IMG/VR virus record: IMGVR_UViG_3300042514_001512
DNA length: 64,000 bases
Reading direction: 5' to 3' (one strand)
Source: an uncultured virus (IMG/VR IMGVR_UViG_3300042514_001512)
Lineage: Duplodnaviria > Heunggongvirae > Uroviricota > Caudoviricetes
The notes under the pieces were generated by a model. The model searched no databases, had not been told where the DNA came from, and worked only from the letters and a program-made list of their open reading frames with translations. Position 1 is the stretch's first letter. Each line of letters starts with the position of its first letter. Position numbers and translations under genes: made by a program. This document shows, piece by piece, positions 1-29,707 of the stretch.

Positions 1-2610
1 CCAACAAATACTCCTACACCAACAAACACACCAACACCAGGATTATCACCAACCCAAACACCGACTAACACTCCAACTAACACTCAAACACCGACTAATA
101 CGACAACAAACACACCAACAAATACTCCAACAAACACACCAACAAATACACCAACTAAAACACCAACAAATACTGTAACACCAACAAATACTGTAACCCC
201 AACAAATACTGAAACGCCAACAAATACTCCCACCCCAACAAATACACTTACACCAACAAATACAGTAACACCAACAAATACTTCAACTCCAGCAAATACT
301 GAAACGCCAACAAATACACCAACACCAACAAATACCCTTACACCAACAAATACAGTAACACCAACAAATACACCTACACCAACTAAAACTCCAAGCCAAA
401 CGCCAACTAAAACTCCAACTAAAACTCCAACTAAAACTCCAACCCAAACTCCAACGCCAACTAAAACTCCAACCCAAACCCAAACTCCAACCCAAACTCC
501 AACTCCTACATCAACGTATATTCCGTCTTGGGACTGTAATGGTATTTATTGTTTTGACCCAGGTGATGGTACAGGATATTTTTCTACATTTGAAGAGTGT
601 GACAGTGTATGTAACACTTATGATTGTGTCGAGGGTAATTGTGTACAAAATTTAACTGGTGAGGGAGAATATGTTGGTATAATTGAGTGTTTAACTTTTT
701 GTTTACCAACACCAACTCCAACCCAAACACCAACTAATACACCAACTAACACTCCAACACCAACTGAAACGCCAACTAACACACCTACACCAACTGAAAC
801 GCCGACCCAAACACCAACCCAAACACCAACTAACACTTCAACACCAACTAACACTCCAACGCCAACTGAAACGCCAACTAATACTCCAACGCCAACTGAA
901 ACGCCAACTAACACACCTACACCAACTGAAACACCAACCCAAACACCAACTAACACACCTACACCAACTAACACACCTACACCAACTGAAACTCCAACCC
1001 AAACACCAACTAACACCCCAACGCCAACTAACACACCTACACCAACCCAAACACCAACCCAAACACCAACTAACACTCCAACACCAACTAACACACCTAC
1101 ACCAACTGAAACTCCAACCCAAACACCAACTAACACCCCAACGCCAACTGAAACTCCAACAAATACCCCAACTGAAACACCAACAAATACTCCAACTGAA
1201 ACGCCAACTGAAACGCCAACTAATACTCCAACCCAAACTAACACACCAAGTCCAACTGAAACTCCAACAAATACTCCAACTGAAACTCCAACAAATACCC
1301 CAACTGAAACTCCAACAAATACTCCAACTGAAACTCCAACAAATACGCCCACCCCAACTGAAACACCAACAAATACTCCAACTGAAACGCCAACCCCAAC
1401 TGAAACTCCAACAAATACCCCAACTGAAACTCCAACAAATACTCCAACTGAAACTCCAACAAATACGCCAACCCCAACTGAAACTCCAACAAATACACCA
1501 ACTGAAACTCCAACAAATACTCCAACAGAAACTCCTACCCAAACTCCGACCCAAACGCCAACTGAAACTCCGACAAATACTCCAACTGAAACTCCAACAA
1601 ATACCCCTACACCAACTAACACTCCGACACCAACAGTTACGCCAACACCAACTAACACTCCAACACCAACTGAAACGCCAACAAATACCCCAACTGAAAC
1701 TCCAACAAATACCCCAACTGAAACTCCAACAAATACTCCAACTGAAACTCCAACAAATACTCCAACTGAAACTCCAACAAATACACCAACCCCAACTGAA
1801 ACTCCAACAAATACCCCAACTGAAACTCCGACAAATACTCCTACCCAAACTGAAACACCAACAAATACTCCAACAAATACTCCAACGCCAACTCAAACTC
1901 CAACGCCAACTGAAACACCAACAAATACCCCAACTAACACTCCAACACCAACTCAAACACCTACACCAACTAACACTCCGACACCAACAGTCACACTTGG
2001 GTTAACTCCAACACCAACAAATACTTCAACCCCGACAAATACTATAACGCCAACAAATACCCCTACGCCAACAAATACTCCAACCCAAACACCGACTAAC
2101 ACCCCAACCCCAACAAATACACCAACCCAAACATCAACTAACACCCCAACCCAAACTAACACTCCAACAAATACACCAACTCAAACACCAACAAATACTC
2201 CAACAAATACTCTAACACCTACACCAACAAATACACCAACAAATACACCAACAAATACACCAACAAATACTGTGACTCCAACCCAAACACCAACTAACAC
2301 TCCAACCCAAACACCAACTAACACTCCAACACCAACTGAAACGCCAACACCAACACCAACAAATACACCAACAAATACACCAACTCAAACTCCAACTCAA
2401 ACTCCAACCCAAACACAAACAAATACTCCAACAAATACTGTAACTAACACCCAAACTCCAACAAATACGCCAACCCCAACTGAAACACCAACAAATACAC
2501 CAACTGAAACTCCAACAAATACTCCAACAAACACTCCAACAAATACGCCAACCCAAACTAACACTCCAACTAATACTGTAACACCAACAGTTACACCAAC
2601 ATCACCACCA
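1..2610 (+). repeat. Coding low-complexity tandem repeat (units such as ACTGAAACTCCAACAAATACTCCA = TETPTNTP), interrupted at ~517-705
   Basis: Visible C/A-rich degenerate repeats with synonymous third-position variation. Confidence 0.95.
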
Positions 2611-3807
2611 GAATTACCAATTTATACTGGTGAAACTGTTTGTGATATTCCATATAACATTAACACAGGGATTACAGGTTCTTGGCAGATTACAGTTCAG
2701 TTAGGTTCGTATGTGGGAACTGTTTCAAGTATTTTTAATGCATATCAGGTACCAGATAAGTTCCAAGTTTTTTGGAATGGGAATTTGGTTATTGATACAG
2801 GATTTAGGGGTAACGCTATTTTTAATCCACAATTAAATACCTTAGGATATCCAAGTGTTGTAGGTGGAGGTTTTGTTTCCACTTCTTGGACTAAATCAAC
2901 AGCGTTTCCTGATTTCGCAACAGTTGTGGTTACCGCACCTATTGATTCAACTAGATTTTATTTTAAATTGGGATGTCCGACTGTAACACCAACTCCAACC
3001 CAAACTCCAACCCAAACACCAACACCAACAAATACTCCAACTAATACTCCAACACCTACACCTTTACCGATAATACCACTATGTTCTGTATTAATTAATG
3101 GGGGTGTTGACGTATACGCCTATTTTCCATCATCAAATACTAACGTATTGTTAGGTAATTCTTTTCCTTTTTCCCCAGATATTGCACATACAACAACTAA
3201 ACTATGGTTGTATGATGGGACAATTCTAGAATATGACATAACATTAAGTCCTTGGTCGGCAACGTTCAACAGAACTATCGAATGCCCTTTAGGTGTTAAT
3301 TTAGGGAATGGTTTAGGCTCCATTACCAACACTGAGTTAATCTCAACAGACGATACAGTAACTCCTAATCAAATAATTGTTTTAGATATTACCACAAGTA
3401 CCGCAGTCTCAACTGTAATTGGAACACTAGGGGTTGGTAGGTATGTTTCGGGTGATATTTTATTAACAACTACAAATAAAATATTAGTTACTAATGAAGG
3501 TAATGATGGAGTATTCCTTAGTCAATATAGTTATCCGTCAGGTACTTTTGAAGTTGAGGTCGATATTACGTCAACCACAAGCCAACCGTATGGTTTATTT
3601 ATTGATAGTGGTAATATATATGTTTGTAACAGTGGTGGTGAAATATATAATGTTGATGTTAACTTCCCATACACACAAACATTATCTAATATCTCAGGAT
3701 TATTTGTTGGAGGAGCATCTCAAGTACTAAGTTGTTGTGATACTAACCTAAACTTACCACCAACTCCTACACCAACAAATACTCCAACACCTACACCAAT
3801 CGCATAA
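1..3807 (+). CDS. 5'-truncated giant Thr/Pro-rich (mucin-like) protein, >=1268 aa, with a Cys-rich module and C-terminal beta-rich domains; probable virion surface/fibre protein
   Basis: Frame +1 read by hand has no stop from base 1 to TAA at 3805-3807; the track's GTG at 2272 is internal. [14 protein letters not shown] repeats at 1-516 and ~706-2610. Globular parts include [24 protein letters not shown] and a propeller-like region ([29 protein letters not shown]). Confidence 0.85.
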
Positions 3808-3895
3808 CCAACAACAGAATTATTCATAAAAAAACTAAAGGGTAATACTTTATTAACAACAAATATTTTTTATATTTTATTTAAAAATAAAAACC

Positions 3896-5143
3896 ATGAA
3901 AATATTTGTTCAGATAGCCTCTTATCGTGACCCCCAACTTATCCCAACAATCAAATCAATGTTGGAGAATGCCAAAAACCCAAAAAATTTAGTAATCGGA
4001 ATTTGTCGTCAATACCATCCTGAGGATGGGTTTGATGATTTATCAGAATATGCTAAAGATAAACGATTTAGAGTTATTGATGTTTTATATTCTGACGCTA
4101 AAGGAGTTTGTTGGGCAAGAAACCAAGTTCAACAATTATATAAAGGTGAAGAATATACCCTACAAATAGACTCTCATATGAGATTTGAAAAATATTGGGA
4201 CGATACCTTAATCAAAATGGTTAAACAACTTCAAAAGAAAGGATTTGAGAAGCCTTTATTAACAGGATACGTATCTTCATTTGACCCGGACAATGACCCG
4301 GCAGGTAGAGTTACGGTACCTTGGAGAATGGCTTTTGATAGATTTATTCCTGAAGGAGCGGTATTCTTTTTACCTGAAACAATTCCTGGATGGGAAACCC
4401 TTAAAGAACCGGTTACTTCACGATTTTATTCTGCCCATATGGCATTCACTCTTGGTCAATTTAGCGTTGAAGTTCAACACGACCCTGAATTTTATTTTCA
4501 CGGAGAAGAGATATCAATCGCCGTTAGAGCATTCACTCACGGATATGATTTATTCCACCCACATAAAGTTGTGATTTGGCACGAATACACCCGTAAAGGT
4601 AGAACAAAACAATGGGACGACGATAAAGAGTGGGGTAAGAAAAATGAATTATCCCATAAAAAAAATCGTCAACTATTTGGTATGGATGGTGAAGAGGTAA
4701 CAATGGATTTTAGTTATTATGGATTTGGAACCGAAAGAACTTTAAAAGACTATGAGATTTATTCAGGTCTTAGATTTTCAAATAGAGCGGCACAACAATA
4801 TACTTTAGATAAACATTATGCTCCTAATCCAACAATTTATGAAACTGAAGAGGAATGGTTGGCAAGTTACGCTACTATTTTTAAACATTGTATTGATGTT
4901 GGTTTTACTCAAGTTCCAGAAAATGACTATGATTTTTGGGCGGTAATTTTTGAGGGTAGTAATGGTAATGAGTTATATAGGAAAGATGCGGATAAGGAAG
5001 AAATCAATCGATTAAAATCTGACAAAGACGGATATTGTAAAATATGGAGAGATTTTCAAACAACTGAAAAACCAAATAAATGGATTGTATGGCCACATAG
5101 TGAGTCTAAAGGTTGGTGTGATATAATAACAGGTAACTTATAA
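3896..5143 (+). CDS. GT60 / GlcNAc-family glycosyltransferase (Gnt1/OGNT-like polypeptide alpha-GlcNAc transferase)
   Basis: IFVQIASYRDP, KGVCWAR, LQIDSHMRF (DSH metal motif), FHGEE and HGYDLFHP match this family. Confidence 0.8.
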   Translation: MKIFVQIASYRDPQLIPTIKSMLENAKNPKNLVIGICRQYHPEDGFDDLSEYAKDKRFRVIDVLYSDAKGVCWARNQVQQLYKGEEYTLQIDSHMRFEKYWDDTLIKMVKQLQKKGFEKPLLTGYVSSFDPDNDPAGRVTVPWRMAFDRFIPEGAVFFLPETIPGWETLKEPVTSRFYSAHMAFTLGQFSVEVQHDPEFYFHGEEISIAVRAFTHGYDLFHPHKVVIWHEYTRKGRTKQWDDDKEWGKKNELSHKKNRQLFGMDGEEVTMDFSYYGFGTERTLKDYEIYSGLRFSNRAAQQYTLDKHYAPNPTIYETEEEWLASYATIFKHCIDVGFTQVPENDYDFWAVIFEGSNGNELYRKDADKEEINRLKSDKDGYCKIWRDFQTTEKPNKWIVWPHSESKGWCDIITGNL

Positions 5144-5145
5144 AA

Positions 5146-5994
5146 ATGGTTAAAATTTACGATGAATATGATTCATATTTAGAGGGAGGACATTTTTCAT
5201 CACCAAGAAAAAATTTGGGGAATAAATTGTTTATATATTCCGCTTGTAGAATAATTAGTGAACTATTAGGGTATGAGTTAATATCTCCCGAAAACGCGTT
5301 AGTAAGAAGAGAAGATACCGAAAATGGACAATATAAAGAAATCCTATTCCCATTTAAAGGTGTTAAAGGAAATATTGTGGATGACCCAATTAAAGTTATT
5401 CAAGATGGCGACATCATACAATTAGGTAGTATTGAAAATTTAATACAATCCTACCCAAATCATGGATTTTTAAATCAATCATATTTTTCAAAATATGATT
5501 ACATTAAACCATATAAGACTAAGGTTAAAGAATATTTTAAAAGTATCGTTAAAGATAAAAGGGTTGGTAACGATTTAGTAATTATGTTAAGAAGTAGTAA
5601 TTACGACGGAAGTTTTGTTTTACCCGACAGTTATTACCTTAATATTATATCTCAAGAAACTTTTGATAATTTATATATTTCATTTGACCATATAAACAAA
5701 CATCAATCATTAATTAATAAATTAGAGAAATATAACCCTAAATTAATTGATGGTGATATACTTGAAGTTTTTTCAGAAATCACATCATTTAATACAATAA
5801 TCGCCGCTCAAGGAACATTTTCTTTTTGGGCTTGTTTTTTATCTAACGCCAATAAAATATATTGGCCGATTACCAATGATGGTCCAAATTCCGGTAAAAA
5901 CTCAAATAACCCCGTGTTTAACTCATATGTTAATTTAACGGTCGATGATGAACCAAGATATGAATTAATAAACGTAACAGATATATACAAATGA
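5146..5994 (+). CDS. GT11-like (alpha-1,2-fucosyltransferase family) glycosyltransferase, divergent
   Basis: NLGNKLFIY (cf. GLGNQLFQY), MLRSSNY (cf. HIRRGDY), IAAQGTFSFWACFL (cf. IANSTFSWWAAYL). Confidence 0.7.
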   Translation: MVKIYDEYDSYLEGGHFSSPRKNLGNKLFIYSACRIISELLGYELISPENALVRREDTENGQYKEILFPFKGVKGNIVDDPIKVIQDGDIIQLGSIENLIQSYPNHGFLNQSYFSKYDYIKPYKTKVKEYFKSIVKDKRVGNDLVIMLRSSNYDGSFVLPDSYYLNIISQETFDNLYISFDHINKHQSLINKLEKYNPKLIDGDILEVFSEITSFNTIIAAQGTFSFWACFLSNANKIYWPITNDGPNSGKNSNNPVFNSYVNLTVDDEPRYELINVTDIYK

Positions 5995-6671
5995 TAAAAA
6001 CAATCAATTTTAGTCTTTTTGGTACTGAAATGAAGTATTACATGGGAGCCGAAAAAAATGTTATAATTAATAAAGAATTATTACCAGATTGGACAACCGT
6101 AATATATTACCATCCTCAAAACATAATTCAAGGTTATGTCGAAAAACTGTCTTCATTAGGTGCGACAATGGTGGATGTGTCAAATATAAAGTTAGGTGAT
6201 AAAGAATCAATTCACTTCCCATATTTTTGGAGATTTCTTTCATTTTTACAAGACAGTCCCTCAATAGTTAGAGATTTGGACAGTAGAATTTCTGAAAGAG
6301 AAGTAAAATATATTAGAAAATGGGAAGAAACAAATAAAGATTATTTTATTATCCGAGACCATCCGTGGCATGCACCCGTACCAAGTGGGTTATTTGGTAT
6401 TAAGAAAAAAATAGAAGAGTTTGAAAAACACTTTATTGAGTTTGTTAATATTGATGAGTTACGTTGGGGGTCCGACCAAGAAATTTTAAGAATTTATATG
6501 GAAAATATTAGTGACGAAAATGTGTTTTATTGTGGTTACGATATTCAAACCAATTATATACCTAGAGACGATAAAACTTTTTTTATTGGAATGCAAATGA
6601 ATGAAAATGATGAACCAACAGTCCCAAGTGGTGTACAGTGTTTAAATTACCTAAACGAAATAAATTTATAA
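5991..6671 (+). CDS. Putative GT-A glycosyltransferase
   Basis: FSLFG...KY, FWRF, RDLDSR (DxD), RDHPWH, GSDQ; lies in the GT cluster with an overlapping start/stop. Confidence 0.55.
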   Translation: MIKTINFSLFGTEMKYYMGAEKNVIINKELLPDWTTVIYYHPQNIIQGYVEKLSSLGATMVDVSNIKLGDKESIHFPYFWRFLSFLQDSPSIVRDLDSRISEREVKYIRKWEETNKDYFIIRDHPWHAPVPSGLFGIKKKIEEFEKHFIEFVNIDELRWGSDQEILRIYMENISDENVFYCGYDIQTNYIPRDDKTFFIGMQMNENDEPTVPSGVQCLNYLNEINL

Positions 6672-6672
6672 A

Positions 6673-7434
6673 ATGAAGTATTGTTTTACAACTTTGGCTG
6701 TCGGTGAGCCATATGAAGAATTAACCGCAAAGTTATACACAAGTTTAAGAGATAAAACTCAAAACTGTGAATTTTTTATAACAACAAATAACCCTAACTT
6801 CCCTGATTTAGGTGAAAAAATTCACATTAATAGAGAGTCATTACAAAGTCTACACGATTCTAAAGGTGGATTTAGTTTTCATTTAAATTATAAGTGTTTA
6901 TCAATTAAACACGTTTTGTCTAATGAAAAACAAATGTTATCATTAGACCCAGAATTTAAAAAATTTGATTACGTAATCTTTACTGACGGTGATTGGATTT
7001 TGGAAAGCGGGTTTTCTGAAGAGAAGATTTTAAATATGTTAAATTATATGGAAACTGAAGGATTTGATTTTGCATTTGAAAGACCTGCAAGTATCGGTGA
7101 TGGTAGACGAGACCCTGAAAATAGTTTCTATAGAGATAAAATTTATGATTATGATATATTAGAATATGATAAATGGGATGAGGCTCACGTTGTTAATGAA
7201 CAATGTTTGGTATTTAAAAATAATTATAAATTTAGATTTTTTGCTCAAAGATGGGAACAATTTTTATGGTATTCAATCCATAACGATATTAGAAACTACC
7301 CTGACGGTTTTGAGATTGGAGTATCGGCTTTAGAAGCAGGGATGAAATGGAACTACAATGGAGTGTTTAATCACTTTTTACAAGGATGTTTCGGATTTTA
7401 TACTAAACTTGGTGATTATCACATTAGATTTTAA
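6673..7434 (+). CDS. Putative GT-A glycosyltransferase / nucleotide-sugar transferase
   Basis: N-terminal FTTLAVG strand, FDYVIFTDGD (DxD); cluster context. Confidence 0.5.
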   Translation: MKYCFTTLAVGEPYEELTAKLYTSLRDKTQNCEFFITTNNPNFPDLGEKIHINRESLQSLHDSKGGFSFHLNYKCLSIKHVLSNEKQMLSLDPEFKKFDYVIFTDGDWILESGFSEEKILNMLNYMETEGFDFAFERPASIGDGRRDPENSFYRDKIYDYDILEYDKWDEAHVVNEQCLVFKNNYKFRFFAQRWEQFLWYSIHNDIRNYPDGFEIGVSALEAGMKWNYNGVFNHFLQGCFGFYTKLGDYHIRF

Positions 7435-7451
7435 TTATATATATATATATT

Positions 7452-7988
7452 ATGTCACACAAAGAACAACAAGATTTCCTAACGTATGTTAGAGACAAAT
7501 TCCCAAATAAATTTGAGAATTGTAGAGTTTTAGATATCGGCTCATTAGATATCAATGGTAATAACAGGTATTTGTTTACAAATTACGAATACATCGGACT
7601 AGATATTGGTGAAGGAAACAACGTAGATGTTGTATGTAGAGGTCACGAATATAATGATGAAAAATTATTTGACGTAATTGTGTCTTCAGAATGTTTTGAA
7701 CACGATGAATTTTGGGAATTAACAATAAAGAAAGGTATCGATTTACTTAAACCAAATGGCGTGTTTTTATTTACTTGCGCTACAACAGGTAGACCGGAAC
7801 ACGGAACAAAAAGAACATCACCAAGCGATAGTCCATTTACTTCAAGTTTAGAGAACGATTATTATCGAAATTTAGAAGAAGATGATATTCGACAATCAAT
7901 TAATGTTGATGAAATATTTTCAGAATATGAATTTCAGAGTAGACTAAATTGGCCACAAGATTTGTATTTTTGGGGTATTAAAAAATAA
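7452..7988 (+). CDS. Class I SAM-dependent methyltransferase
   Basis: VLDIGS motif I, YIGLD, FDVIVSSECFEH, LLKPNG. Confidence 0.85.
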   Translation: MSHKEQQDFLTYVRDKFPNKFENCRVLDIGSLDINGNNRYLFTNYEYIGLDIGEGNNVDVVCRGHEYNDEKLFDVIVSSECFEHDEFWELTIKKGIDLLKPNGVFLFTCATTGRPEHGTKRTSPSDSPFTSSLENDYYRNLEEDDIRQSINVDEIFSEYEFQSRLNWPQDLYFWGIKK

Positions 7989-7991
7989 AAT

Positions 7992-8915
7992 ATGAAATCA
8001 AAAATTGTAACGGCTTATTGGATGGATGTTGAGGGGTATCCATTTCAAGGAGTACTTCCAGTTAGAAAAATAAGATATCAAGGTTCTTTAATTTCTCATT
8101 GTACTGGTAGTGGACTACCGGTTATTTGCTATACTCATAGTAAAAATTATGACGAACTTAATGATATTAAAGTAAAGTATAATTTAACTAATTTAGAGTT
8201 GAAAATATTAGAATTATCTGATGTGAAATATCACACTGAAATTGAAATGATTAGAAATAATAATTTTGATACCGATTTGGATGGTAGAGGTCCTGAAATA
8301 ATGTGGGGAAAATTTGATGTGTTAGAAAGAGAACTTGACGGATTTGATAGGGTTTATTGGGTGGATGTTGGTTTACAACACCCGGGCATATTCCCTTGGA
8401 TGTACTCTAAAGTTCACAATGAGAATTCTGAAAATTTAGGCGTACCAACAAATTGGTGGGCTCATTTAGATGTGTTTAATTTTTCAAAATTAATTGATAG
8501 TGAAGTGTATGATAAATTAAATAAAATCTGTGAAAATAAAATAATGTTTGTTTGTTCATATGGTCCTCAAATAAGTTATCCGTTTTTAAATTATGGAATA
8601 TTAAACAAATCGTTTGAATCTCCATACCCGGTTGGTGGTATGTTTGGTGGGGATGTTCAAGTATTAAAGAAATATATAAATTTATTTTGGGAATTCACTG
8701 AGAAAATTTTAGAAAAAAACTTACTTTGTACAGAAGAAGTAATTATGAAACCGTCCTACGATTTAATTGATAACGATGAAAAGGTTACACTTATGTTTAA
8801 CGCGTTTGCGTCTGGGGAACACGATGATTATCACTACACTATGTGGAATGAAGGAAAAAATACACCAAAACCTTTCTATATGATGTGGCACAATATAAAA
8901 AATTTTAAAATATGA
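7992..8915 (+). CDS. HtrL/WlaTC-like glycosyltransferase
   Basis: IVTAYW, KFDVL, YWVDVGL, VGGMFGG, TEEVIM. Confidence 0.6.
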   Translation: MKSKIVTAYWMDVEGYPFQGVLPVRKIRYQGSLISHCTGSGLPVICYTHSKNYDELNDIKVKYNLTNLELKILELSDVKYHTEIEMIRNNNFDTDLDGRGPEIMWGKFDVLERELDGFDRVYWVDVGLQHPGIFPWMYSKVHNENSENLGVPTNWWAHLDVFNFSKLIDSEVYDKLNKICENKIMFVCSYGPQISYPFLNYGILNKSFESPYPVGGMFGGDVQVLKKYINLFWEFTEKILEKNLLCTEEVIMKPSYDLIDNDEKVTLMFNAFASGEHDDYHYTMWNEGKNTPKPFYMMWHNIKNFKI

Positions 8916-10588
8916 ATAAAATAACATTAGTAACCGGTTTATGGGATTTAGGTAGAGATAAACTCACCGAAGGGTGGTCTCGGACATATCAACATTATTT
9001 AGATAAATTTCAACAACTTTTACAAGTTGATGTAAATATGATAATTTTTGGTGATGAGGAATTAGAAAAATTTGTTTCAGAGAATAGACGTAATGAAAAT
9101 ACACAATTTGTTCGCAGAGAGTTATCTTGGTTTAAAAATAATGATTTTTATGATAAAATACAAAAGATAAGAACCAATCCTGATTGGTATAATCAAGTTG
9201 GTTGGTTAACAGAGTCAACTCAAGCTAAACTAGAGATGTATAACCCTTTAGTTATGTCTAAAATTTATCTTTTACACGACGCAAAAATTTTAGATAAGTT
9301 TAATTCAGAATATATGTTTTGGATTGACGCGGGATTAACAAATACAATTCACCCTGGATATTTTACAAGTGATAAGGTTTTAGATAAACTACCTAAGTTA
9401 GTTAAGAATTTCCATTTTGTTTGTTTTCCTTATGAAACAACTAGTGAGATTCACGGATTTAAATATCAAGAGTTATGTGAATTAGCAGGAAAACCTGTTA
9501 ATATGGTTGCAAGAGCAGGATTCTTTGGTGGAAAAAAAGATTTTATTTCTGAAATAAATAGTTTATACTATGGATTAATGAACGATACATTATCCCAAGG
9601 ATTGATGGGAACTGAAGAGTCGTTATTTACAATTATGACATACAAATACCCTAATTTAATTACTTATTCTGAAATTGAAGGTAATGGGTTAATGGGTAAA
9701 TTTTTTGAGGATTTAAAAGATATGACAGTTGAGGTAAAATCGGAAGTATCAAAAGATGTTGTTGTTAATAATTTGGACACATCAAAAGTTGGATTATACG
9801 TGATTACTTTTAACTCACCAAAACAATTGGAGGTTCTTATTCAGTCAATGTTAGATTACGATAAAGATTTTGTAGAGAAACCAAAGAAATTCTTATTAGA
9901 TAATTCAACTGATTTATCAACAACACCAAGATATCTTGAACTATGTGAACAATATGGTTTTGAACATATTAAAAAAAATAATATAGGTATTGTTGGTGGT
10001 AGAGTATTTGTTGCCGAACATTTTGATGAAACTGATTTGGATTTTTATTATTGGTTTGAAGATGACATGTCATTTTATCCTAAAAAGAATGAAGTTTGTA
10101 GAAATGGTTTTCCTCGTTTTGTGGGTAACTTATATCAAAAATCATTAGAGATTATTCAAAAAGAAAATTTTGATTTTTTAAAATTAAATTTTAGTGAATT
10201 TTACGGCTCAAACGATATTCAATTCTCATGGTATAATGTGCCCCAAGATTTCAGACAAAAACATTGGCCAAACAATCCTAAATTACCTGTACAAGGATTA
10301 GACACCAATTCCCCCAAAACAAAATTTGATGAAATACATATTCACAAAGGATTACCATATGTATTGGGTGAGATTTTTTTATGTAATTGGCCAATTGTAT
10401 TAACAAAAGAGGGTAATTATAAATGTTATTTAGAGACAAAATGGGCTCACCCTCACGAACAGGTACTAATGAGTTATTCTTATCAAGAAACGGTTAAAGG
10501 TAATATTAAACCGGGATTACTGTTATTAACACCAACAGAACACAATCGATTTGACCATTATGACGGCTCATTAAGAAAAGAAAGTTAG
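8912..10588 (+). CDS. Two-domain glycosyltransferase: HtrL/WlaTC-like N-terminus plus GT2-like C-terminus
   Basis: N-terminus: LVTGLWDLGR, FWIDAGL, AGFFGG, GTEESLF. C-terminus: YVITFNSP, LLDNST, NIGIVGGR, WFEDD. Confidence 0.65.
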   Translation: MNKITLVTGLWDLGRDKLTEGWSRTYQHYLDKFQQLLQVDVNMIIFGDEELEKFVSENRRNENTQFVRRELSWFKNNDFYDKIQKIRTNPDWYNQVGWLTESTQAKLEMYNPLVMSKIYLLHDAKILDKFNSEYMFWIDAGLTNTIHPGYFTSDKVLDKLPKLVKNFHFVCFPYETTSEIHGFKYQELCELAGKPVNMVARAGFFGGKKDFISEINSLYYGLMNDTLSQGLMGTEESLFTIMTYKYPNLITYSEIEGNGLMGKFFEDLKDMTVEVKSEVSKDVVVNNLDTSKVGLYVITFNSPKQLEVLIQSMLDYDKDFVEKPKKFLLDNSTDLSTTPRYLELCEQYGFEHIKKNNIGIVGGRVFVAEHFDETDLDFYYWFEDDMSFYPKKNEVCRNGFPRFVGNLYQKSLEIIQKENFDFLKLNFSEFYGSNDIQFSWYNVPQDFRQKHWPNNPKLPVQGLDTNSPKTKFDEIHIHKGLPYVLGEIFLCNWPIVLTKEGNYKCYLETKWAHPHEQVLMSYSYQETVKGNIKPGLLLLTPTEHNRFDHYDGSLRKES

Positions 10589-10710
10589 TTTAATATTTTA
10601 TCGTTTTTTTTTAAATTATCTTCAGCCCATAGTGGTTGAAGATTTGTGTAATGACAAAATTTACACATCCCTTCTTTAGTTTTTGATGATGATGATAAAT
10701 AAAAAATAAT
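10585..10710 (-). pseudogene. Relic C-terminus of an HNH homing endonuclease
   Basis: Minus strand reads IIFYLSSSSKTKEGMCKFCHYTNLQPLWAEDNLKKNDKILN*, matching the CHYTNLQPLW..N..K tail of phage HNH endonucleases. An in-frame stop lies just upstream and there is no DH motif. Confidence 0.7.
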
Positions 10711-10745
10711 TTTGTTTTATCAAGTATTTATAATAAAAACTTTAA

Positions 10746-11411
10746 ATGGATTTCTACATTAAGAAAAACGCAACCTTACCTGTGATTAAACTCCAAGTGG
10801 TGAAGGATGGTCGAAGTGACTATGATAGCTTCATGAAAACTATTGAGTTATCGGCAATATTCTTTTCAATGGTTGATTCTGATACAGGTATACCAAAAAT
10901 TAGTTCAAGACCGGCAGGATTTGTTGAGAAAACATTCTTAGACCCCAACGCCGAACCAGAATATTACATTTATTATCAATTTACCTCAAAAGACACTAAT
11001 AGAGTTGGTTCATATGAAGGACAATTTATGTTAAGAAACGATGATGGTGTTTTAATATTGCCAATACGTGAAAAATTAAACATCAACATCCAAGACTCAT
11101 TTATTGCGGATGACTTAGTTTATGATAGTTGTTATGTTTCAGAATTCCCTTGTTGTGTTAACGGACCTTTTGTTTCGACAACAACAACTTCTCCATGTCC
11201 AAGTTGTCCAACATGTCCTGAACCAACACCGACACCTCAACCAACAACAACTACTACGACATATAACCCAACAACAACAACAACCACACATTCGCCAACT
11301 CCAACACCAACATTAACACCAACGCCAGAACCCGAAATTTTAATCAATCCTATCTTAGTTGGTGAAGACCAATATTTGAGTGTTGGGGATAATGAATATT
11401 TAGAATATTAA
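10746..11411 (+). CDS. BppU-like virion protein with Cys/Thr/Pro-rich C-terminal tail
   Basis: N-terminal FYIKKNATLP...YQFTSKDT...G.YEGQF pattern; tail TTTTSPCPSCPTCPEPTPTPQPTTTTTT. Confidence 0.55.
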   Translation: MDFYIKKNATLPVIKLQVVKDGRSDYDSFMKTIELSAIFFSMVDSDTGIPKISSRPAGFVEKTFLDPNAEPEYYIYYQFTSKDTNRVGSYEGQFMLRNDDGVLILPIREKLNINIQDSFIADDLVYDSCYVSEFPCCVNGPFVSTTTTSPCPSCPTCPEPTPTPQPTTTTTTYNPTTTTTTHSPTPTPTLTPTPEPEILINPILVGEDQYLSVGDNEYLEY

Positions 11412-11458
11412 TAATCCATCTTTAAAAATTAAACTATTTATAAAATAAAAAACAAATT

Positions 11459-13936
11459 ATGGCATTAACAGGAAAAACAATTGGACAACTAACATATCTT
11501 TCGGGAGTAACAACGGATACATTATTTCCCGTAGAATTGAGTGGTGATACATACCATATAGCATATTCTGCGTTCACTAATTCAAACTATAACGAAGGAA
11601 CTTACGATAATTTATATTCATTCGCCACAGGTGGAACACTAACCGCTGGAAGTTATTATTTAATGACTGATTATCAAGCTTGTTATGACCAACCAAACTA
11701 TGATAATGTAAAAAATCCAATTACTACAGGTAACTATAAAACAGGAACAACCGAACCAATTTTATTATTGGCAATATCTACAACAGGATTTTCACCTACC
11801 GTATATTCTACATTATACCCTAATGATAACATAACATACGACATAACTTGGAATACCACTGAAATCACGAGTAGTCCTGCAAAAGGTAGAATCACTGAAA
11901 GAATTGATAACTTTAATAATAGAACTGATTATGATAACAGAAGTATTTTATTTAAAAGATATCATGGATATTCATATGAAGAAAATAGTCCATTAGGTGG
12001 TCTTGTTGGGATAAGTGGTTTAACAGGAACAATTGCCGTGTTATATGGTAACGCAAGTACCACATTTACCTCAAATTTCTCAACAGGGTCGATTGTTTCA
12101 GTACAAAATTTAAATCCTTCCTTTTTTGAAGTTATGTCTGTTGTAACCAATTCTTTGGCAATTATATCAGGTGTAACAATAAGTGAAACTACTAACTCAC
12201 CTTATTATTCTGGAAATGATGATGGTATAATGAGTTATTACCAACCTAATATAAGACAAAACCAAGTTTTTGAATATACAACATTTGGGGATGCTTTAGA
12301 TGTTAGTTCTGCGATAAATAACTACATTGGTAACCAATCCAATTTATATTTAGAAGATAATAGTGGACAGTTTTTATTGGCTAATAATGTGTTTTTAGAT
12401 GGGTCTTTTTTAAATAACACCATCGGTAACGGTTCTTATAATAACACATTTAATGATGATTGTGATAATAATCAAATAGGAGACAGATTTTATAATAACT
12501 CAACAAATGATGATTTTGATGGTAATATAATTGGAGAAAATTTTAGGAACAATTACATCACATCAAATTTCAATAATAATAGAATTGGTAGTGATTTTTA
12601 TAGTAACACTTTACTAGGTGGGTCTTTTTATAGAAACAATATTGGAAATGATTTTAATAATAATGTTTGGACTAATTCAGATTTTCAAAATAATGAAATA
12701 GGAAATCAGTTTAATGATAATAAAATTTATGATGACTTCTATAATAACGATATTGGTAATGGATATAATAACAATGAAAGTTATTCACAATTTTATCGTA
12801 ATTTAATTGGGAACGGATATAATAGTAATACCATATATTCAGAATTTTATGAAAATAATATTGAACACGTTTTTTATGATAATACTATTGGGACTAATTT
12901 AACTATTGGGTCATATGATTTTAGGGGTAATAGGATTGGAAATGACTTCGAAAATAATACGATTATTGTTAATTTTGAAAACAACAACATTTTAAATGAT
13001 TTTAATACTAATACCATATATTTTGAGTTTAGAAAAAATTCAATATTAAATGGTTTTAATCTAAATACAATTGGTGGAGTTAACAACTTGGGTCTTCTTT
13101 TTGAGAATAACCAAATTATGAATAACTTTAAGGGTAACGACATTCAAGGTAATTTTTGGAGTAACCAAATTAAAACAGATTTTAAAGGTAATGATATATT
13201 TGAGGAGTTTGGATATAATAACATAGGATTTGGGTGTTCACCTAATTCTTTTAGTGGTATCACAATACATAACAATATTGGTGATAATTTTTCATTTAAT
13301 ACTTGTTATGGTGTATTTTCGTACAACACAATAGGAACTAATTTCAATTCTAATGATGTACAAGATGGATTTGGTTTTGGTGGGGTATCTTATCAGGGAA
13401 ATAGAATTGGGAATAATTTTAATGATAATACTATTGGTGAATACTTCTACAATAATACGATACCTGATAACTTTACCGATAATACAGTTGGGGATTCATT
13501 CCAATGGAATATTGTTAATACCTATGTTGATAATATCGATTTCACCACAAACTATGGAAACATAAGTGGTATTACTTATAGTGCAACAGGAACTACGGCA
13601 ACTGATTCGTCATATGGTAGTATTAGTGGTACAACTAATGGTATAGGCGTTAACGCATTATTTCAAATTGATGTGGTTGGTGGAATTGTCACTAATGTTT
13701 CAATTATCAGTGGAGGAACATTATACTCAACTGGTAATACAGTAACAATATTAGGTAGTCAAATTGGTGGGACTGATGGTGTTGATAATGTTATTATTAC
13801 GGTTTCTAGTGTTAGTCAAACACCATCTGTTTATGAGGAGTACACTTGCAATATCTTTAAAAATTCTGCACTATTAAATAGATTATCTTACTATGATGGA
13901 AGTGACGTATTAAACATAAAAAATATAAACGAATAA
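11459..13936 (+). CDS. Tail fibre/spike-like protein with beta-helix repeats
   Basis: Many ~9-residue F-x-N-N-x-I-G repeats at ~12380-13530; Gly/Thr/Ser-rich ends. Confidence 0.6.
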   Translation: MALTGKTIGQLTYLSGVTTDTLFPVELSGDTYHIAYSAFTNSNYNEGTYDNLYSFATGGTLTAGSYYLMTDYQACYDQPNYDNVKNPITTGNYKTGTTEPILLLAISTTGFSPTVYSTLYPNDNITYDITWNTTEITSSPAKGRITERIDNFNNRTDYDNRSILFKRYHGYSYEENSPLGGLVGISGLTGTIAVLYGNASTTFTSNFSTGSIVSVQNLNPSFFEVMSVVTNSLAIISGVTISETTNSPYYSGNDDGIMSYYQPNIRQNQVFEYTTFGDALDVSSAINNYIGNQSNLYLEDNSGQFLLANNVFLDGSFLNNTIGNGSYNNTFNDDCDNNQIGDRFYNNSTNDDFDGNIIGENFRNNYITSNFNNNRIGSDFYSNTLLGGSFYRNNIGNDFNNNVWTNSDFQNNEIGNQFNDNKIYDDFYNNDIGNGYNNNESYSQFYRNLIGNGYNSNTIYSEFYENNIEHVFYDNTIGTNLTIGSYDFRGNRIGNDFENNTIIVNFENNNILNDFNTNTIYFEFRKNSILNGFNLNTIGGVNNLGLLFENNQIMNNFKGNDIQGNFWSNQIKTDFKGNDIFEEFGYNNIGFGCSPNSFSGITIHNNIGDNFSFNTCYGVFSYNTIGTNFNSNDVQDGFGFGGVSYQGNRIGNNFNDNTIGEYFYNNTIPDNFTDNTVGDSFQWNIVNTYVDNIDFTTNYGNISGITYSATGTTATDSSYGSISGTTNGIGVNALFQIDVVGGIVTNVSIISGGTLYSTGNTVTILGSQIGGTDGVDNVIITVSSVSQTPSVYEEYTCNIFKNSALLNRLSYYDGSDVLNIKNINE

Positions 13937-13938
13937 TA

Positions 13939-14901
13939 ATGACAACAAAATACATAGTAGATAATTTAACAGGACAAACCATAACGGGTGATATAACCAT
14001 AAATGGGAATTTAAGTGTTACCGGTGTTACAACAGGAAGTTTAGCAACCTATAAAGCACTACTAACTCAGTTAGGTTCTCAGACCGGTACAACCTTAAAT
14101 GATTTTAATGACGGTTTAATTATAGGCGAAACCTATACAATAACTGATTATGTTAGTGGTGATAGTTTTAGTAATGTCGCTAATGTAACGAGTGGAGTTA
14201 TAGACACAACGGGATGTGAATTTATTGCAACAGGAGAAACACCAACAAATTGGAGTAACGGTTCTACTTTAGTATCTAGCGGTAATTTAGTGGTAAAAGT
14301 ATTAGAAAACAATTTGGGATTTGACATTGAGTGGGTTAATGATGATGAATTCCAACCAGGATTTTATTTAGGTGTTAATTCAACCACAGGACCACTGTAT
14401 AATACTTTTAATAGAAACACAACATTCGTTCAAGGAGGAGGGTCTTCAATTTCATTTTTTGGACCTTTCATATCAGAAACTTTTGCAACACCTATTAGTT
14501 TTAACGAGAAGGATGATAGTGTTGTTGTTGCGATTTTTGATTTAAGTGAAGAACCTACACCAGTTTCAGATAATTTATATTATTTTCCTATTGAGATTCA
14601 AATTCAACAAGATACCGACACAACACCAATTGTAATAAGTGGAACTGTAGAATCATCATTTCCTATTAATGATACTAGTATTTCTTTGTTTTGTAATGGA
14701 AATTACATTCAATCACTTTACGGAGATGGTACAGTAAATGATATGTCAGAACTTATAACTTACTTAAACTCTTTACCAAATACAAGTTATTTAGGAACAT
14801 ATTCTAATGATGGAGATGGAGTTCTTTTAGAAATGTCAACCAATTTAGTAAATCAATTCTGTTCTAGTGGAACATTAACGTTTGAGGTATTCAACGATTA
14901 A
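13939..14901 (+). CDS. Hypothetical protein, probably virion fibre-associated
   Basis: QTITGDITINGNLSVTG fibre-like N-terminus; starts 2 bp after the previous gene. Confidence 0.5.
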   Translation: MTTKYIVDNLTGQTITGDITINGNLSVTGVTTGSLATYKALLTQLGSQTGTTLNDFNDGLIIGETYTITDYVSGDSFSNVANVTSGVIDTTGCEFIATGETPTNWSNGSTLVSSGNLVVKVLENNLGFDIEWVNDDEFQPGFYLGVNSTTGPLYNTFNRNTTFVQGGGSSISFFGPFISETFATPISFNEKDDSVVVAIFDLSEEPTPVSDNLYYFPIEIQIQQDTDTTPIVISGTVESSFPINDTSISLFCNGNYIQSLYGDGTVNDMSELITYLNSLPNTSYLGTYSNDGDGVLLEMSTNLVNQFCSSGTLTFEVFND

Positions 14902-14920
14902 ATTTATAAAATTTAAAAAA

Positions 14921-15160
14921 ATGATAAAATATATTAAAAGAAAAAGTGATAATAAGTTTCTACAATCTTTAGAAAATGATGTTTGGGTTGATAACTCAAA
15001 GGAGGCTTATGAAATGACATATAGAGAATGTGAGAATACAAAAACCACATTACTTAACACATATACTTCTGAAGAAATAACTGAAGTTTTTAATATGTTT
15101 AAGAGTAAACCAATGTCAAGAGAAGAAAAAAAAGAACTACTTAATTTACTAAAAAAATAA
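14921..15160 (+). CDS. Hypothetical protein (79 aa)
   Basis: In-frame ATG at 14921 after an A-rich leader preferred to the track's TTG at 14882. Confidence 0.6.
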   Translation: MIKYIKRKSDNKFLQSLENDVWVDNSKEAYEMTYRECENTKTTLLNTYTSEEITEVFNMFKSKPMSREEKKELLNLLKK

Positions 15161-15164
15161 CCCT

Positions 15165-15413
15165 ATGAGAATAAATATTTTAACAGAAAACGATAAGGTA
15201 GAACAAGTAAGAGAAGCTTGGGTAAATAAAAATGTTATGAAAATACCTTGCTCATCAACAGGAGAAGAACCTGCAACTCATTGGTTTTGCGCAATGGCAG
15301 GTTCTGAGGAAAAAATGAACTCTATTTACGCTAAGAAAAACTTATCTATTATGGAATTAGAAATTGGTCCAAAAGAATTTCTTAATAAATGGAATCTGAA
15401 AATTATAAGATAG
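15165..15413 (+). CDS. Hypothetical protein
   Basis: Operon-like spacing. Confidence 0.6.
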   Translation: MRINILTENDKVEQVREAWVNKNVMKIPCSSTGEEPATHWFCAMAGSEEKMNSIYAKKNLSIMELEIGPKEFLNKWNLKIIR

Positions 15414-16021
15414 TAAAAAATTTCATCAGTGATGATGAGGTTAATCTAATTGTTGATTGGGTAGATTCATTAAATCCTGAAGACGGTGACCCCAATTACC
15501 ACTTAAGTGAAATCTCAAAAACACTAAAGGGAAAATCTTGTGTTATAGACATCTCAAATACCGAACTTACAAACTACATTACAAACTTTCAATCAGTTTC
15601 TAAAGTTTCAAATCAAAAGACCCCCCAAATTATCAAAAATATTTTTAAAAGGATATCTGAAAAAAATAACCTACCCCTTGATAATATCTTTATTCAAGCG
15701 GTTGATATGAAAAAAGGTGGTAGAATACAACCCCACTATGACGCATCAATTGATGGTTACATAAATTATAAGTGTAACATAAGTGTGTTATCAGAAGATT
15801 ACAAAATTTTTATAGACGGTTCTTCACCTGTAATAGAACAAAAAGACTTATACTGTTTTGAGGCGTCTTTATACAAACATTGGACCGAAGAGTTTAACTC
15901 AAGAAGAGTTTTTTTAAGTTTTGGGTTTATAGTTCCATATCATGTTTTGGGTAGAACTCATGACGACCCAAGAGTTAGATTAAGTCAAAGAATTGTAAAA
16001 TATTTTCAAAAACTTAGTTGA
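15389..16021 (+). CDS. 2OG-Fe(II) dioxygenase (prolyl-hydroxylase-like)
   Basis: YKIVKNFISDDE start, PHYD (HxD), KH distal His, RRVFLSF (2OG-binding Arg). Confidence 0.75.
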   Translation: MESENYKIVKNFISDDEVNLIVDWVDSLNPEDGDPNYHLSEISKTLKGKSCVIDISNTELTNYITNFQSVSKVSNQKTPQIIKNIFKRISEKNNLPLDNIFIQAVDMKKGGRIQPHYDASIDGYINYKCNISVLSEDYKIFIDGSSPVIEQKDLYCFEASLYKHWTEEFNSRRVFLSFGFIVPYHVLGRTHDDPRVRLSQRIVKYFQKLS

Positions 16022-21950: not shown

Positions 21951-21990
21951 AAGGCTTATTTTATTATTATAAATAAGCGGAAGTTTCAAA

Positions 21991-29300: not shown

Positions 29301-29707
29301 TATATCAAGGTCGTCTTAACCCAATTGCAACTTTCTCTGATGTTGGAACCGTAATTTGGGGTAATAAAACACTACAAGTTAGACAATCAGCTCTTGATAG
29401 AATTAACGTAAGAAGATTATTACTTCAAGCTCGTAAATTAATTTCAGCGGTATCTGTAAGATTACTGTTTGAACAAAACGACCAAAAAGTAAGACAAGAT
29501 TTCTTAGATGCGGTTAACCCTATATTAGACGCAATCAGAAGAGACAGAGGTTTATACGATTTCCGTGTAACAGTTTCTTCAGACGCGGCTGACTTAGATA
29601 GAAACCAAATGACGGGTAAAATCTACGTTAAACCTACAAAGTCGTTAGAATTTATAGACATTACGTTCTATATTACTCCAACAGGTGCATCTTTTGAGAA
29701 CATCTAA
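26372..29707 (+). CDS. Contractile tail sheath protein (gp18-like)
   Basis: VSPGVYTSEVDLS, WFAAAGYTRG, WGNKTLQ, DRINVRRL. Confidence 0.95.
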   Translation: MATNSKVFVSPGVYTSEVDLSFVAQSVGVTTLGIVGETLKGPAFEPIFITNFDEFSTYFGGSSPEKFINTQIPKYEAAYIAKSYLQQSNQLFVTRILGLSGYDAGPSWTITTKANVDPATVDFYCESATTVNCIDTCVDYKVVDFAIDFSGCNNSFGSISFINPTQIPAEIAEKLDIPYELFDGSLSTVRTNMTNQIFDILNEPSSENTSIYYYGPISGDTYEAFSPIFTAETNVYGVNNVDANLIDYAAPENDPWYYSLFDNLGNAAYSGYSFWSIVTGLTLTPPVITTTTTLPGTTTTTTTNPCITPTPISTTTTTTAAPVNCYTGTLIGRIYVFSGTAFTDYDDLVIATLRSRGLATYSTDDGPVYEVSGLTDVTMDCLGAYSGVTKNPYATFGINITNKDGNTYFFETSFQNSDPKYLPKVFGSSNFAKPRTVVPLFVEERFQALLNYGWRKGFIRGLSCNLTALPNARQGSDPTSIAWYLEQYQSPTSPWVVSELRGNKVYNLFKFTTIADGEAANTEVKISIANISFNNGTFDVLVRDFFDSDSSPVVIEKFTNCNMDPNDNAFIAKKIGTIDGEYELNSKYVMIELNEDAPIDALPCGFLGFNFREYAGVRPPFPIIKQKYDFPGEVVYNPPFGLSSGADDITRSNGDNVRRTYLGISDTIGIDVDYYYYKGKQLPLDICSDSTGEDWNFRSRGFHMDIDASGITIPNAFVTSGTPAFYCGSAPFTKDPDTEANPYYRIFARKFSFLVQGGFDGWDIYREHRTNSDRFVLGRNGYLKGSCPSIKYPTATGWGAFKQITVGDNTQGYANTDYYAYLLGQKTFVNPEAVNINLFVTPGIDYVNHSNLVESAVDMIENDRADSLYVCTTPDFNMFVPTTTNTQDLIYPQEAVDNLDTAGIDSNYTATYYPWVLTRDTVNNTQIYLPATAEVTRNLALTDNIAFPWFAAAGYTRGIVNAIKARKKLTQEDRDTLYQGRLNPIATFSDVGTVIWGNKTLQVRQSALDRINVRRLLLQARKLISAVSVRLLFEQNDQKVRQDFLDAVNPILDAIRRDRGLYDFRVTVSSDAADLDRNQMTGKIYVKPTKSLEFIDITFYITPTGASFENI

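Follow-up and report, generated by a model that had tools for sequence, protein, structure and literature searches.

We analyzed a 64,000-nucleotide stretch of DNA from an uncultured virus (IMG/VR record IMGVR_UViG_3300042514_001512); "the window" means this whole stretch, and all coordinates are positions in it. Its left end holds an open reading frame (ORF) for a giant threonine-proline (Thr/Pro) repeat protein. After a gap of 88 bp come seven tightly packed genes (3896-10588, spaced by 2, -4, 1, 17, 3 and -4 bp), the first encoding a glycosyltransferase (GT) homologue of family GT60 and the last a two-domain enzyme with an HtrL/YibB domain. A first-pass annotation had described this gap and packing correctly and had read the locus as a phage-encoded mucin-type O-glycosylation system. 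That overall reading was supported by hidden Markov model (HMM) searches, predicted folds, gene adjacency, joint presence and absence of the parts, and staining of the cultured phage XacN1. Judging from sequence, we consider it quite probable that the phage O-glycosylates Thr residues of its own fibre and tail proteins in the cytoplasm, GT60 starting the glycan, the tandem GT-A enzyme extending it and an exchangeable cassette of genes finishing it.

Table 1. Genes of the presumed glycosylation locus and neighbouring features of the window.
Feature	Coordinates	Strand	Basis
Giant Thr/Pro protein, 5'-truncated, presumed acceptor	1..3807	+	Composition, profiles
GT60 polypeptide alpha-N-acetylhexosamine (HexNAc)-transferase homologue, soluble, 415 aa; presumed initiator, left anchor	3896..5143	+	PF11397, fold
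Divergent GT11-like (fucosyltransferase-type) protein, cassette gene 1	5146..5994	+	Weak
Putative GT-A glycosyltransferase (DLD motif), cassette gene 2	5991..6671	+	ESM Atlas, lead only
Putative GT-A glycosyltransferase (DGD motif), cassette gene 3	6673..7434	+	Motif conservation
S-adenosylmethionine (SAM)-dependent methyltransferase; presumed sugar O-methylation or chain cap, cassette gene 4	7452..7988	+	PF13489
Single-domain HtrL/YibB-like GT-A protein, cassette gene 5	7992..8915	+	hhalign to N-half of 8912 protein
Tandem GT-A/GT-A enzyme (HtrL_YibB plus second GT-A); right anchor, presumed core extension	8912..10588	+	PF09612, fold
Conserved domain of about 120 aa (BppU-N-like, lead) with variable Thr/Pro tail; second presumed acceptor	10746..11411	+	ESM Atlas
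Asn-rich repeat protein, probably beta-helical fibre; variable, outside conserved module	11459..13936	+	Sequence; no family match
Fibre-type protein, variable, inferred from sequence	13939..14901	+	Sequence
Possible 2-oxoglutarate (2OG)-Fe(II) oxygenase, outside conserved module	15389..16021	+	HxD...H by eye
Tail sheath with Thr-rich insertion; candidate acceptor tract in certain virion protein	26372..29707	+	PHROG tail sheath E 7e-54

The GT60 label was borne out by HMM search, the protein matching PF11397 (GlcNAc, CAZy GT60) at E 3.5e-70 with 237.7 bits against a cut-off of 21. Characterised GT60s transfer alpha-linked N-acetylglucosamine (alpha-GlcNAc) to protein (PMC6939170). When the structural model (predicted local distance difference test, pLDDT, 96.6) was submitted to Foldseek, 31 of the 32 listed rows were polypeptide N-acetylgalactosaminyltransferases (ppGalNAc-Ts, family GT27), and in an exhaustive search of 48,161 chains ppGalNAc-Ts scored Z 21.7 (root-mean-square deviation 3.6, 281 residues aligned) and 20.3, with other GT-A enzymes next at Z 17.3. 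D92-S-H94 (the DxH metal motif), E205 (GEE-type motif) and H229 (second His) were invariant in 81/81 sequences of an alignment spanning 33-89% identity, and these motifs are shared with the animal and apicomplexan ppGalNAc-Ts that gave the best structural matches, in keeping with the kinship claimed earlier. Sequence and profile searches against the PDB returned nothing relevant and no sequence-level GT27 match. Unlike GT27 enzymes, to which it is 11-18% identical, the phage protein has no membrane anchor (its maximum 19-residue hydropathy of 0.78 falls short of a type II membrane protein), and a ricin lectin domain was not detected; it carries an extra C-terminal beta domain at about residues 325-415. 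Fold and catalytic motifs together point to a polypeptide acceptor.

Matches to GT60 were widespread (7385 of 7999 scored proteins at E<=1e-10). In a tree built by quick search, phage GT60s fell in at least three separate places, each beside or in genomes with Thr/Pro proteins. Many database proteins (P0121-P0134 and others) carry two to four tandem GT60 domains in up to 2461 aa. A distant phage GT60 (G003, L242:747-5169) adjoins an FkbM-type methyltransferase gene and a gene that resembles GDP-mannose 4,6-dehydratase by a motif. An unrelated phage (G006, L240:9586-11323) has a divergent (27%) GT60 of 339 aa beside a 242-aa protein; the Thr-Pro pattern match there was rejected as a tract, being antisense to its ORF.

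The presumed acceptor, ORF 1-3807, is open at its 5' end and encodes 1268 aa, including 465 Thr and 246 Pro. As many as 840 of these residues lie in Thr/Pro-rich windows, in line with the roughly 800 repeat codons noted at first, and make up a dense Thr/Ser/Pro acceptor-type domain as in mucins. Between residues 234 and 805 Thr occupies 283 of 286 alternating positions, and because synonymous codons are mixed the repeat is maintained at the protein level. Locus L001, 99.2% identical in DNA to the window over 10.9 kb, has the whole gene, for a protein of 1776 aa with 1197 residues in Thr/Pro-rich windows. The full-length architecture consists of a Cys-containing N-terminal module, tracts of alternating T-x, small globular domains and a propeller-like C-terminal domain. 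The conserved N-terminal module lies outside the window and is present in 49 fetched loci; its profile matched zinc fingers only, which we took as chance. Inspection by eye revealed no signal peptide at the N-terminus of the whole protein. The C-terminal domain, common to other Thr/Pro genes, has a profile matching designed beta-propellers (E 3e-10), and a middle domain recurs in XacN1 ORF370, itself a match to a PHROG virion structural family. Across relatives the gene immediately 5' of GT60 encodes from <200 to >3300 aa, and in a complete relative, G027, exchangeable tips include SprB, BspA-type leucine-rich repeat, DUF285 and Fib_succ_major domains. The combination of conserved anchor, elastic stalk and exchangeable tips suggests that the giant protein is probably a fibre or decoration protein. 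The junction between repeat gene and GT60 (3548-4135 or further) was spanned by independent assemblies in three of four listed runs and 4598-9934 by single contigs in independent assemblies, although all four runs may be sources of the window DNA.

We then compared viral GT60 loci, taking the best 80 of 360, of which 70 were complete from GT60 to the homologue of the 10746 gene. The gene directly upstream of GT60 was mucin-like in 63 of the 73 loci having one, as the first-pass annotation had anticipated for adjacency across relatives, and a mucin-like gene occurred somewhere in the fetched stretch in 79 of 80. Of 351 ORFs collected downstream of GT60, only 3 were mucin-like, all past the HtrL fusion. 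Co-occurrence held as well: all nine PF11397-positive jumbo genomes (two of them first found via the repeat pattern) had 22-141 matches coding for TPTxTPT, compared with none in any of seven PF11397-negative ones, of which five are related to XacN1 by tail sheath and two are mentioned in the paper on XacN1. A tail-tube-anchored comparison was underpowered, with 6 of 10 contigs GT60-positive and the four negatives 21-60% complete. In G007 (L251:9683-16055; 82% complete), Thr/Pro-rich proteins lie beside a 306-aa protein that is RgpF-type-like by eye and had no Pfam, PHROG or NCBIfam match; it is possibly another initiator.

Tracts were found genome-wide, in 16 of 471 ORFs of XacN1 and 11 of 333 of G027, and some lie in recognisable virion proteins. 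These include the tail sheath of the window, whose insertion of 39 Thr-rich residues (282-320) has a similar counterpart in 16 of 44 related sheaths, ORF325 and ORF370 of XacN1 (PHROG virion families) and a baseplate/fibre-connector-like protein of G027. The domain of the 10746 protein fell nearest an ESM Atlas BppU_N cluster (0.93, the family being on 18% of members), and its homologues bore a Thr/Pro tract in 46 of the 70 complete loci. Such placements argue against the idea that GT60 modifies non-virion Thr/Pro proteins, in the host membrane or released, or merely aids repeat folding or solubility during assembly. The XacN1 Thr/Pro genes, which sit immediately before sheath genes, and the apparent lack of a signal peptide in the full-length protein also speak against it. 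This explanation could appeal to the missing structural annotation of most Thr/Pro proteins and to bacterial GT60 partners of secreted type (Por secretion tail, subtilase), and we regard it as unlikely.

The related loci share a layout of Thr/Pro gene, GT60, variable cassette and HtrL fusion. In the 70 complete loci the stretch from GT60 to the 10746 homologue was filled by 42 different gene arrangements, with one to eight middle genes per locus. The fusion was present in 62 of the 70 and invariably closed the cassette (39 of 42 arrangements); in 14 arrangements it had a long N-terminal extension, which was a methyltransferase in the two examined (TylF, FkbM). Cassette content does not follow GT60 descent. 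Among GT60 pairs at least 97% identical, 10 of 59 share no inner gene, and among those less than 80% identical, 11 of 1026 share all of them, pair counts that are not independent. In locus L002, whose GT60 is 99.8% identical, the alignment with the window runs to 5143, the GT60 stop, and resumes at 8909, the start of the fusion; between these ends lie four other genes, a cassette wholly different from that of the window. Conserved ends and an exchanged middle are the pattern of serotype loci, and the five middle genes, first taken for a fixed pathway, are instead one of at least 42 exchangeable cassettes.

Pfam matches among 89 cassette representatives, about four in ten of which had none, covered GT2, GT7, GT10, GT11, GT25, GT32-type, GT34 and PLOD-type GTs, many methyltransferases, carbamoyltransferase, DegT and GNAT, epimerase and nucleotidyltransferase. 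With genes classed by hand from these Pfam scans, a methyltransferase or extended fusion occurred in 30 of the 42 arrangements. The first-pass annotation had seen no nucleotide-sugar synthesis genes in the window; some relatives do carry such genes in the cassette (6 of 42 arrangements). The polymorphic GT islands of jumbo cyanophages, with the same GT families, have been read as modifying the host surface (PMC7824862, PMC12801897), and HtrL has been reported from lipooligosaccharide outer-core loci. By this token the cassette would alter host lipopolysaccharide, capsule or glycoproteins against superinfection, with GT60 alone, or nothing, touching phage proteins. However, none of the seven enzymes has a hydrophobic segment, and no flippase, ligase, polymerase or lipid-carrier transferase was found among the seven genes or the Pfam matches of the 89 representatives. 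The cassette also sits between a protein-acting initiator and Thr/Pro genes, and XacN1 virions stain for sugar (PMC5852040). We give host-surface conversion a small chance.

The labels first given to individual cassette genes fared unevenly. For the product of 5146-5994 a PHROG glycosyltransferase match (E 1.3e-4) agreed with the GT11 call, but the PF01531 match (E 0.0056, 16.4 bits) fell below the curated cut-off of 23.9. PF01531 detected 24 of 47 homologues at E<0.01 (best E 2.4e-4), and the family profile gave no GT match in the PDB and no significant profile match to a cassette GT11; the protein may be GT11-like at most. Of two proteins noted for DxD motifs, those at 5991 and 6673, the DLD and DGD motifs are there, but neither matched a glycosyltransferase in Pfam, PHROGs or NCBIfam. 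The nearest ESM Atlas clusters to the former were "putative glycosyltransferase" (0.98) and GT8/nucleotide-diphospho-sugar transferase (0.92-0.93). In the latter D107 is invariant and D105 nearly so among 17 hand-picked cassette proteins, and its family profile had no GT match in the PDB and no significant profile match to HtrL-like proteins. The methyltransferase call was confirmed (PF13489 E 1.1e-7; PHROG 32762 E 5e-54); its presumed substrate is a sugar.

The HtrL-like product of 7992-8915 has no Pfam match but aligned to the N-half of the 8912 protein (hhalign 98.4%, E 6e-15). That N-half matched HtrL_YibB PF09612 at E 5e-17, with 62.8 bits against a cut-off of 24.1, and scored 64.9 bits with the NCBIfam equivalog TIGR02192, below its 264.9 cut-off. 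The HtrL part of the "HtrL plus GT2" label therefore stood, while the C-half is GT-A by fold and had no Pfam GT2 match. The model of the whole enzyme (pLDDT 85.6) matched Mimivirus R699 (top), LH3, LARGE1 and chondroitin polymerase; searched separately, the N-half matched BoGT6a (Z 13.1) and the C-half B4GALNT1 (Z 13.8). These modelled folds support a glycosyltransferase role for HtrL/YibB domains.

The oxygenase proposed at 15389-16021 kept its HxD...H motif, seen by eye, but had no Pfam, PHROG or NCBIfam family match and stands apart from the module. It was found in 3 of 80 loci, 2 of 15 related genomes and 0 of 3 cultured GT60 phages (other oxygenase families not searched), and therefore Thr rather than hydroxyproline is the likely acceptor. 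A pathway as on Skp1, in which the oxygenase makes hydroxyproline and GT60 modifies it instead of Thr, has a precedent in Gnt1, which acts on hydroxyproline (PMC6939170); the tracts are rich in Pro, and the 15389 protein is weakly similar to prolyl-4-hydroxylases (E 0.2). With the oxygenase unlinked this route loses support, and poly-Thr tracts poor in Pro exist alongside the Thr-Pro ones, so we think it very unlikely. The same lack of linkage removes support for DNA hypermodification, in which oxygenase, methyltransferase and GTs would glycosylate phage DNA bases against restriction. DNA-modifying phage GTs are known (as cited in PMC12619734) and the locus lies upstream of a DNA polymerase gene, but the GT60 fold matches polypeptide transferases and the association with Thr/Pro proteins in phages and bacteria would be left unexplained. 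We give this explanation hardly any credence.

Of 50,697 phage records, just four contained this GT60, namely XacN1, Xoo-sp13, CM1 and RAS14. XacN1 (ORF334-330) and its relatives have the same gene order, with identities of 45-50% for GT60, 28-29% for the HtrL-like protein (XacN1, Xoo-sp13, RAS14) and 38-43% for the fusion. Neighbour genes were checked in three of the four; all three have the HtrL-like and fusion genes, and two have an annotated carbamoyltransferase between them. XacN1 differs in that GT60 lies about 12 kb from the nearest upstream tract gene, and its lineage and host are not those of the window phage. At least two Schiff-stained virion glycoproteins have been reported in XacN1, with phage GTs suggested as their makers (PMC5852040), and this agrees with the expectation of glycosylated virion proteins in a cultured relative, the bands being unassigned to genes. 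In its accessible text the XacN1 paper names just two GTs, and not GT60, HtrL proteins or Thr/Pro tracts (PMC5852040).

The PF11397 match is shared with protist GT60s, namely Gnt1 of Dictyostelium and Toxoplasma and the Trypanosoma cruzi polypeptide alpha-GlcNAc-transferase (PMC6939170). Like Gnt1, the phage GT60 is soluble, and a two-domain GT comes next, as PgtA does after Gnt1 (PMC6939170). Unlike the protist enzymes it is clustered with its presumed acceptors, has no linked prolyl hydroxylase and no Golgi anchor, and brings the extra C-terminal beta domain and a variable extension cassette. Trypanosome mucins are Thr-rich acceptors of GT60, like the phage tracts. The serine-rich repeat adhesins of Gram-positive bacteria undergo cytoplasmic stepwise O-glycosylation by GtfA/GtfB and strain-variable accessory GTs encoded beside the substrate; there the initiator is a GT-B (GT4) enzyme, the acceptors are Ser and an accessory Sec system takes part, whereas the phage has a GT-A GT60, Thr-Pro acceptors and no secretion. 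By analogy the proposed pathway works like mucin-type and serine-rich repeat adhesin glycosylation and is a member of neither. The first description of it as eukaryote-style is better replaced by soluble and cytoplasmic, given the seven enzymes without a hydrophobic segment, and the same module is common in bacteria. Giant viruses (Mimivirus, with R699, and PBCV-1) likewise encode soluble GTs, and GT60-like folds were found in Pandoravirus and Megaviridae; they differ in their eukaryotic hosts and collagen- or capsid-type acceptors. Mycobacteriophage GTs decorate virion proteins at the C-termini of capsid and tail-tube subunits (Freeman et al. 2023, cited in PMC12619734), whereas in the window phage GT60 would be the initiator and long Thr/Pro tracts in the protein interior would be modified. 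The Moraphages are also aquatic myophages, of 200-307 kb, with PolB, predicted Bacteroidota hosts, four core GT orthogroups and variable islands; GT60, threonine, proline and mucin go unmentioned in the accessible part of that report (PMC12619734).

GT60 also lies near Thr/Pro proteins in bacteria. Such a protein was present within up to 6 kb in 23 of 78 bacterial GT60 loci and in 0 of 80 nrdA control loci of lower GC. Partners included a Por-secretion-tail protein (Saprospiraceae), small twin-arginine proteins, a subtilase and, in a setting labelled Afp-like by eye, a Sphingomonas Thr/Pro protein. GT60 was further found inside type VI secretion clusters (L329:5950-11131, L306, L343, L348, L451-L529) in which VgrG, a phage tail spike homologue, ends in Ser/Thr-Pro repeats such as (TP)n, TEPPP or SEEPPP-like. 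In a survey starting from VgrG, 19 of 79 loci had a nearby GT60 and the tail was present in 19/19, while 21 loci with <5 kb downstream and no GT60 were excluded. Another 31 tailed loci had no GT60 in the flank, and 30/30 of those genomes tested have PF11397; in six chromosomes with comparable coordinates GT60 lies about 24-26 kb upstream of vgrG. This genome-level test took in 30 of the 31 tailed and 6 of 8 below-threshold loci, two being second copies in already positive genomes. Three of those six cannot count as true negatives, since their GT60 is intact and a short Thr/Pro tail can be made out by eye. Two genomes (L502, L527) combine an early-stopping VgrG with an interrupted GT60, an apparent joint decay, and one with a tail-less VgrG has no GT60. 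The XacN1-group GT60s are sister to those of type VI secretion (98%, quick tree). The type VI secretion case is one or two lineages, not 49 events, and is independent of the freshwater phages; from the tails we predict that the spike is glycosylated.

Other bacterial loci differed in their setting. On Saprospiraceae/Bacteroidia chromosomes (L085:6504-11092, L086:6675-12589, L294), GT60 (61-69% identity) and the HtrL fusion lie divergently to a gene whose twin-arginine-like product combines Thr/Ser/Pro repeats with a Por secretion tail. Small Thr/Pro-tailed proteins beside GT60 (L309:5215-5940, L311:5230, L338:2880-3476, L354:7563-8243, L357:1524-2033), which by eye begin with a twin-arginine-like leader in some cases and resemble PqqD at the start in others, may be precursors of glycopeptides resembling ribosomally synthesized and post-translationally modified peptides (RiPPs). 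A Sphingobacterium GT60 behind a peptidase-C39 ATP-binding cassette transporter and radical-SAM-like genes (L345:1-7308) suggests a glycosylated RiPP cluster.

Several observations weigh against phage-run glycosylation of virion proteins. We found no enzyme assay or glycopeptide data for phage or bacterial GT60s, and the Schiff-positive XacN1 bands are not tied to genes in the accessible text (PMC5852040) and could be host-made. Three cassette genes count as GTs by weak evidence alone, and the cassette families GT2, 10, 11 and 25 are those of the cyanophage islands read as host-surface modifiers (PMC7824862, PMC12801897). The co-occurrence counts are not independent, kin sharing both traits. 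When long viral contigs were chosen by Thr-Pro pattern, 14 of 25 had no PF11397, and neither did 6 of the 8 that were at least 90% complete; L126 and L135 were left out of this count. G007 has two Thr/Pro-rich proteins but no GT60, the phage GT60 of G006 has no true tract alongside, and the Thr-rich sheath insertion is missing from 28 of 44 related sheaths. In bacteria, 55 of the 78 GT60 loci had no tract within up to 6 kb, and GC was 0.39 in the nrdA controls vs 0.54.

Family calls of its proteins (Pfam/PHROG) showed the window to be a piece of a large T4-like myophage genome, with a family B polymerase at 16109 and neck, tail sheath, tube, baseplate hub and wedge genes. The nearest genome record is 62 kb long and related records reach 322 kb. 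GC is 28-37% outside the Thr/Pro repeat. Runs in which the stretch occurs come from lake and freshwater metagenomes, and no more than 5-6% of window words were present in RNA runs. The closest cellular ribonucleotide reductases are mostly from Bacteroidota (41-47%) and the GT60 clusters with Saprospiraceae-type sequences in the quick tree, which together hint at, without proving, a Bacteroidota host. The window PolB had no close cultured relative, no tRNAs were found in the window, and promoter and terminator counts were no different from shuffled controls. The Asn-rich repeat protein had homologues in 10 of 80 loci. Elsewhere in the window a gene at 20412-21989 (minus strand) joins an Fe/Mn superoxide dismutase domain to a long C-terminal region, and two products are low in complexity but lack Thr, a neck protein with a Gly-rich insertion (19268-20389, minus strand) and a protein with a long Pro/Ala-rich segment (46663-47349).

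The analysis itself shows the family and fold of the enzymes, the conservation of their catalytic residues, the gene order, the exchange of cassettes and the co-occurrence of the parts. On the glycosylation reading, the phage would make, in the host cytoplasm during infection, an O-glycosylation pathway for its own structural proteins. GT60 would move HexNAc from a host uridine diphosphate-sugar to Thr in T-x-T-P tracts; the sugar would be alpha-GlcNAc by family precedent, and N-acetylgalactosamine is possible. The tandem GT-A enzyme would put on the next one or two sugars, like PgtA of the Skp1 pathway, and the one to eight middle genes would contribute terminal sugars together with decorations of the methyl, carbamoyl or amino/acetyl kind. 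Swapping cassettes, an exchange seen in the genes, would give a strain-specific glycan serotype. Glycosylated tracts may form stiff, protease-resistant stalks that hold adhesion domains off the particle and mask the virion surface, and we infer a virion glycocalyx.

Phage virion glycosylation is already known, in very few phages. The link between GT60 and Thr-Pro proteins, the cassette exchange and the type VI secretion parallel were absent from the literature found, and no publication on phage or bacterial GT60s with Thr/Pro acceptors turned up in a search that left most subscription journals outside and included some queries that were too loose. We rate at even chances the broader proposal that GT60 with Ser/Thr-Pro tracts is a widespread, undescribed prokaryotic system of cytoplasmic mucin-type O-glycosylation, repeatedly taken up by contractile injection machines (several jumbo-phage lineages, an Afp-like locus and a subfamily of type VI secretion VgrG) as well as by secreted bacterial proteins. 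On the same proposal it would form a virion glycocalyx in this abundant lineage of freshwater phages, and exchange of the cassette between the two conserved anchor genes would switch the outer structure of that coat, the phage glycan serotypes being under diversifying selection. The pathway is open to direct testing, since the module is present in cultured phages. For glyco-engineering, it offers a candidate soluble, prokaryote-adapted polypeptide HexNAc-transferase and about 90 clusters of extension and tailoring proteins. If the reading is true, HtrL/YibB domains and prokaryotic GT60s gain likely functions and type VI secretion spikes are predicted to be glycosylated. A very large phage family would then possess a multi-step mucin-like pathway, and with it serotype variation like that of bacterial O-antigens on the side of the virus.

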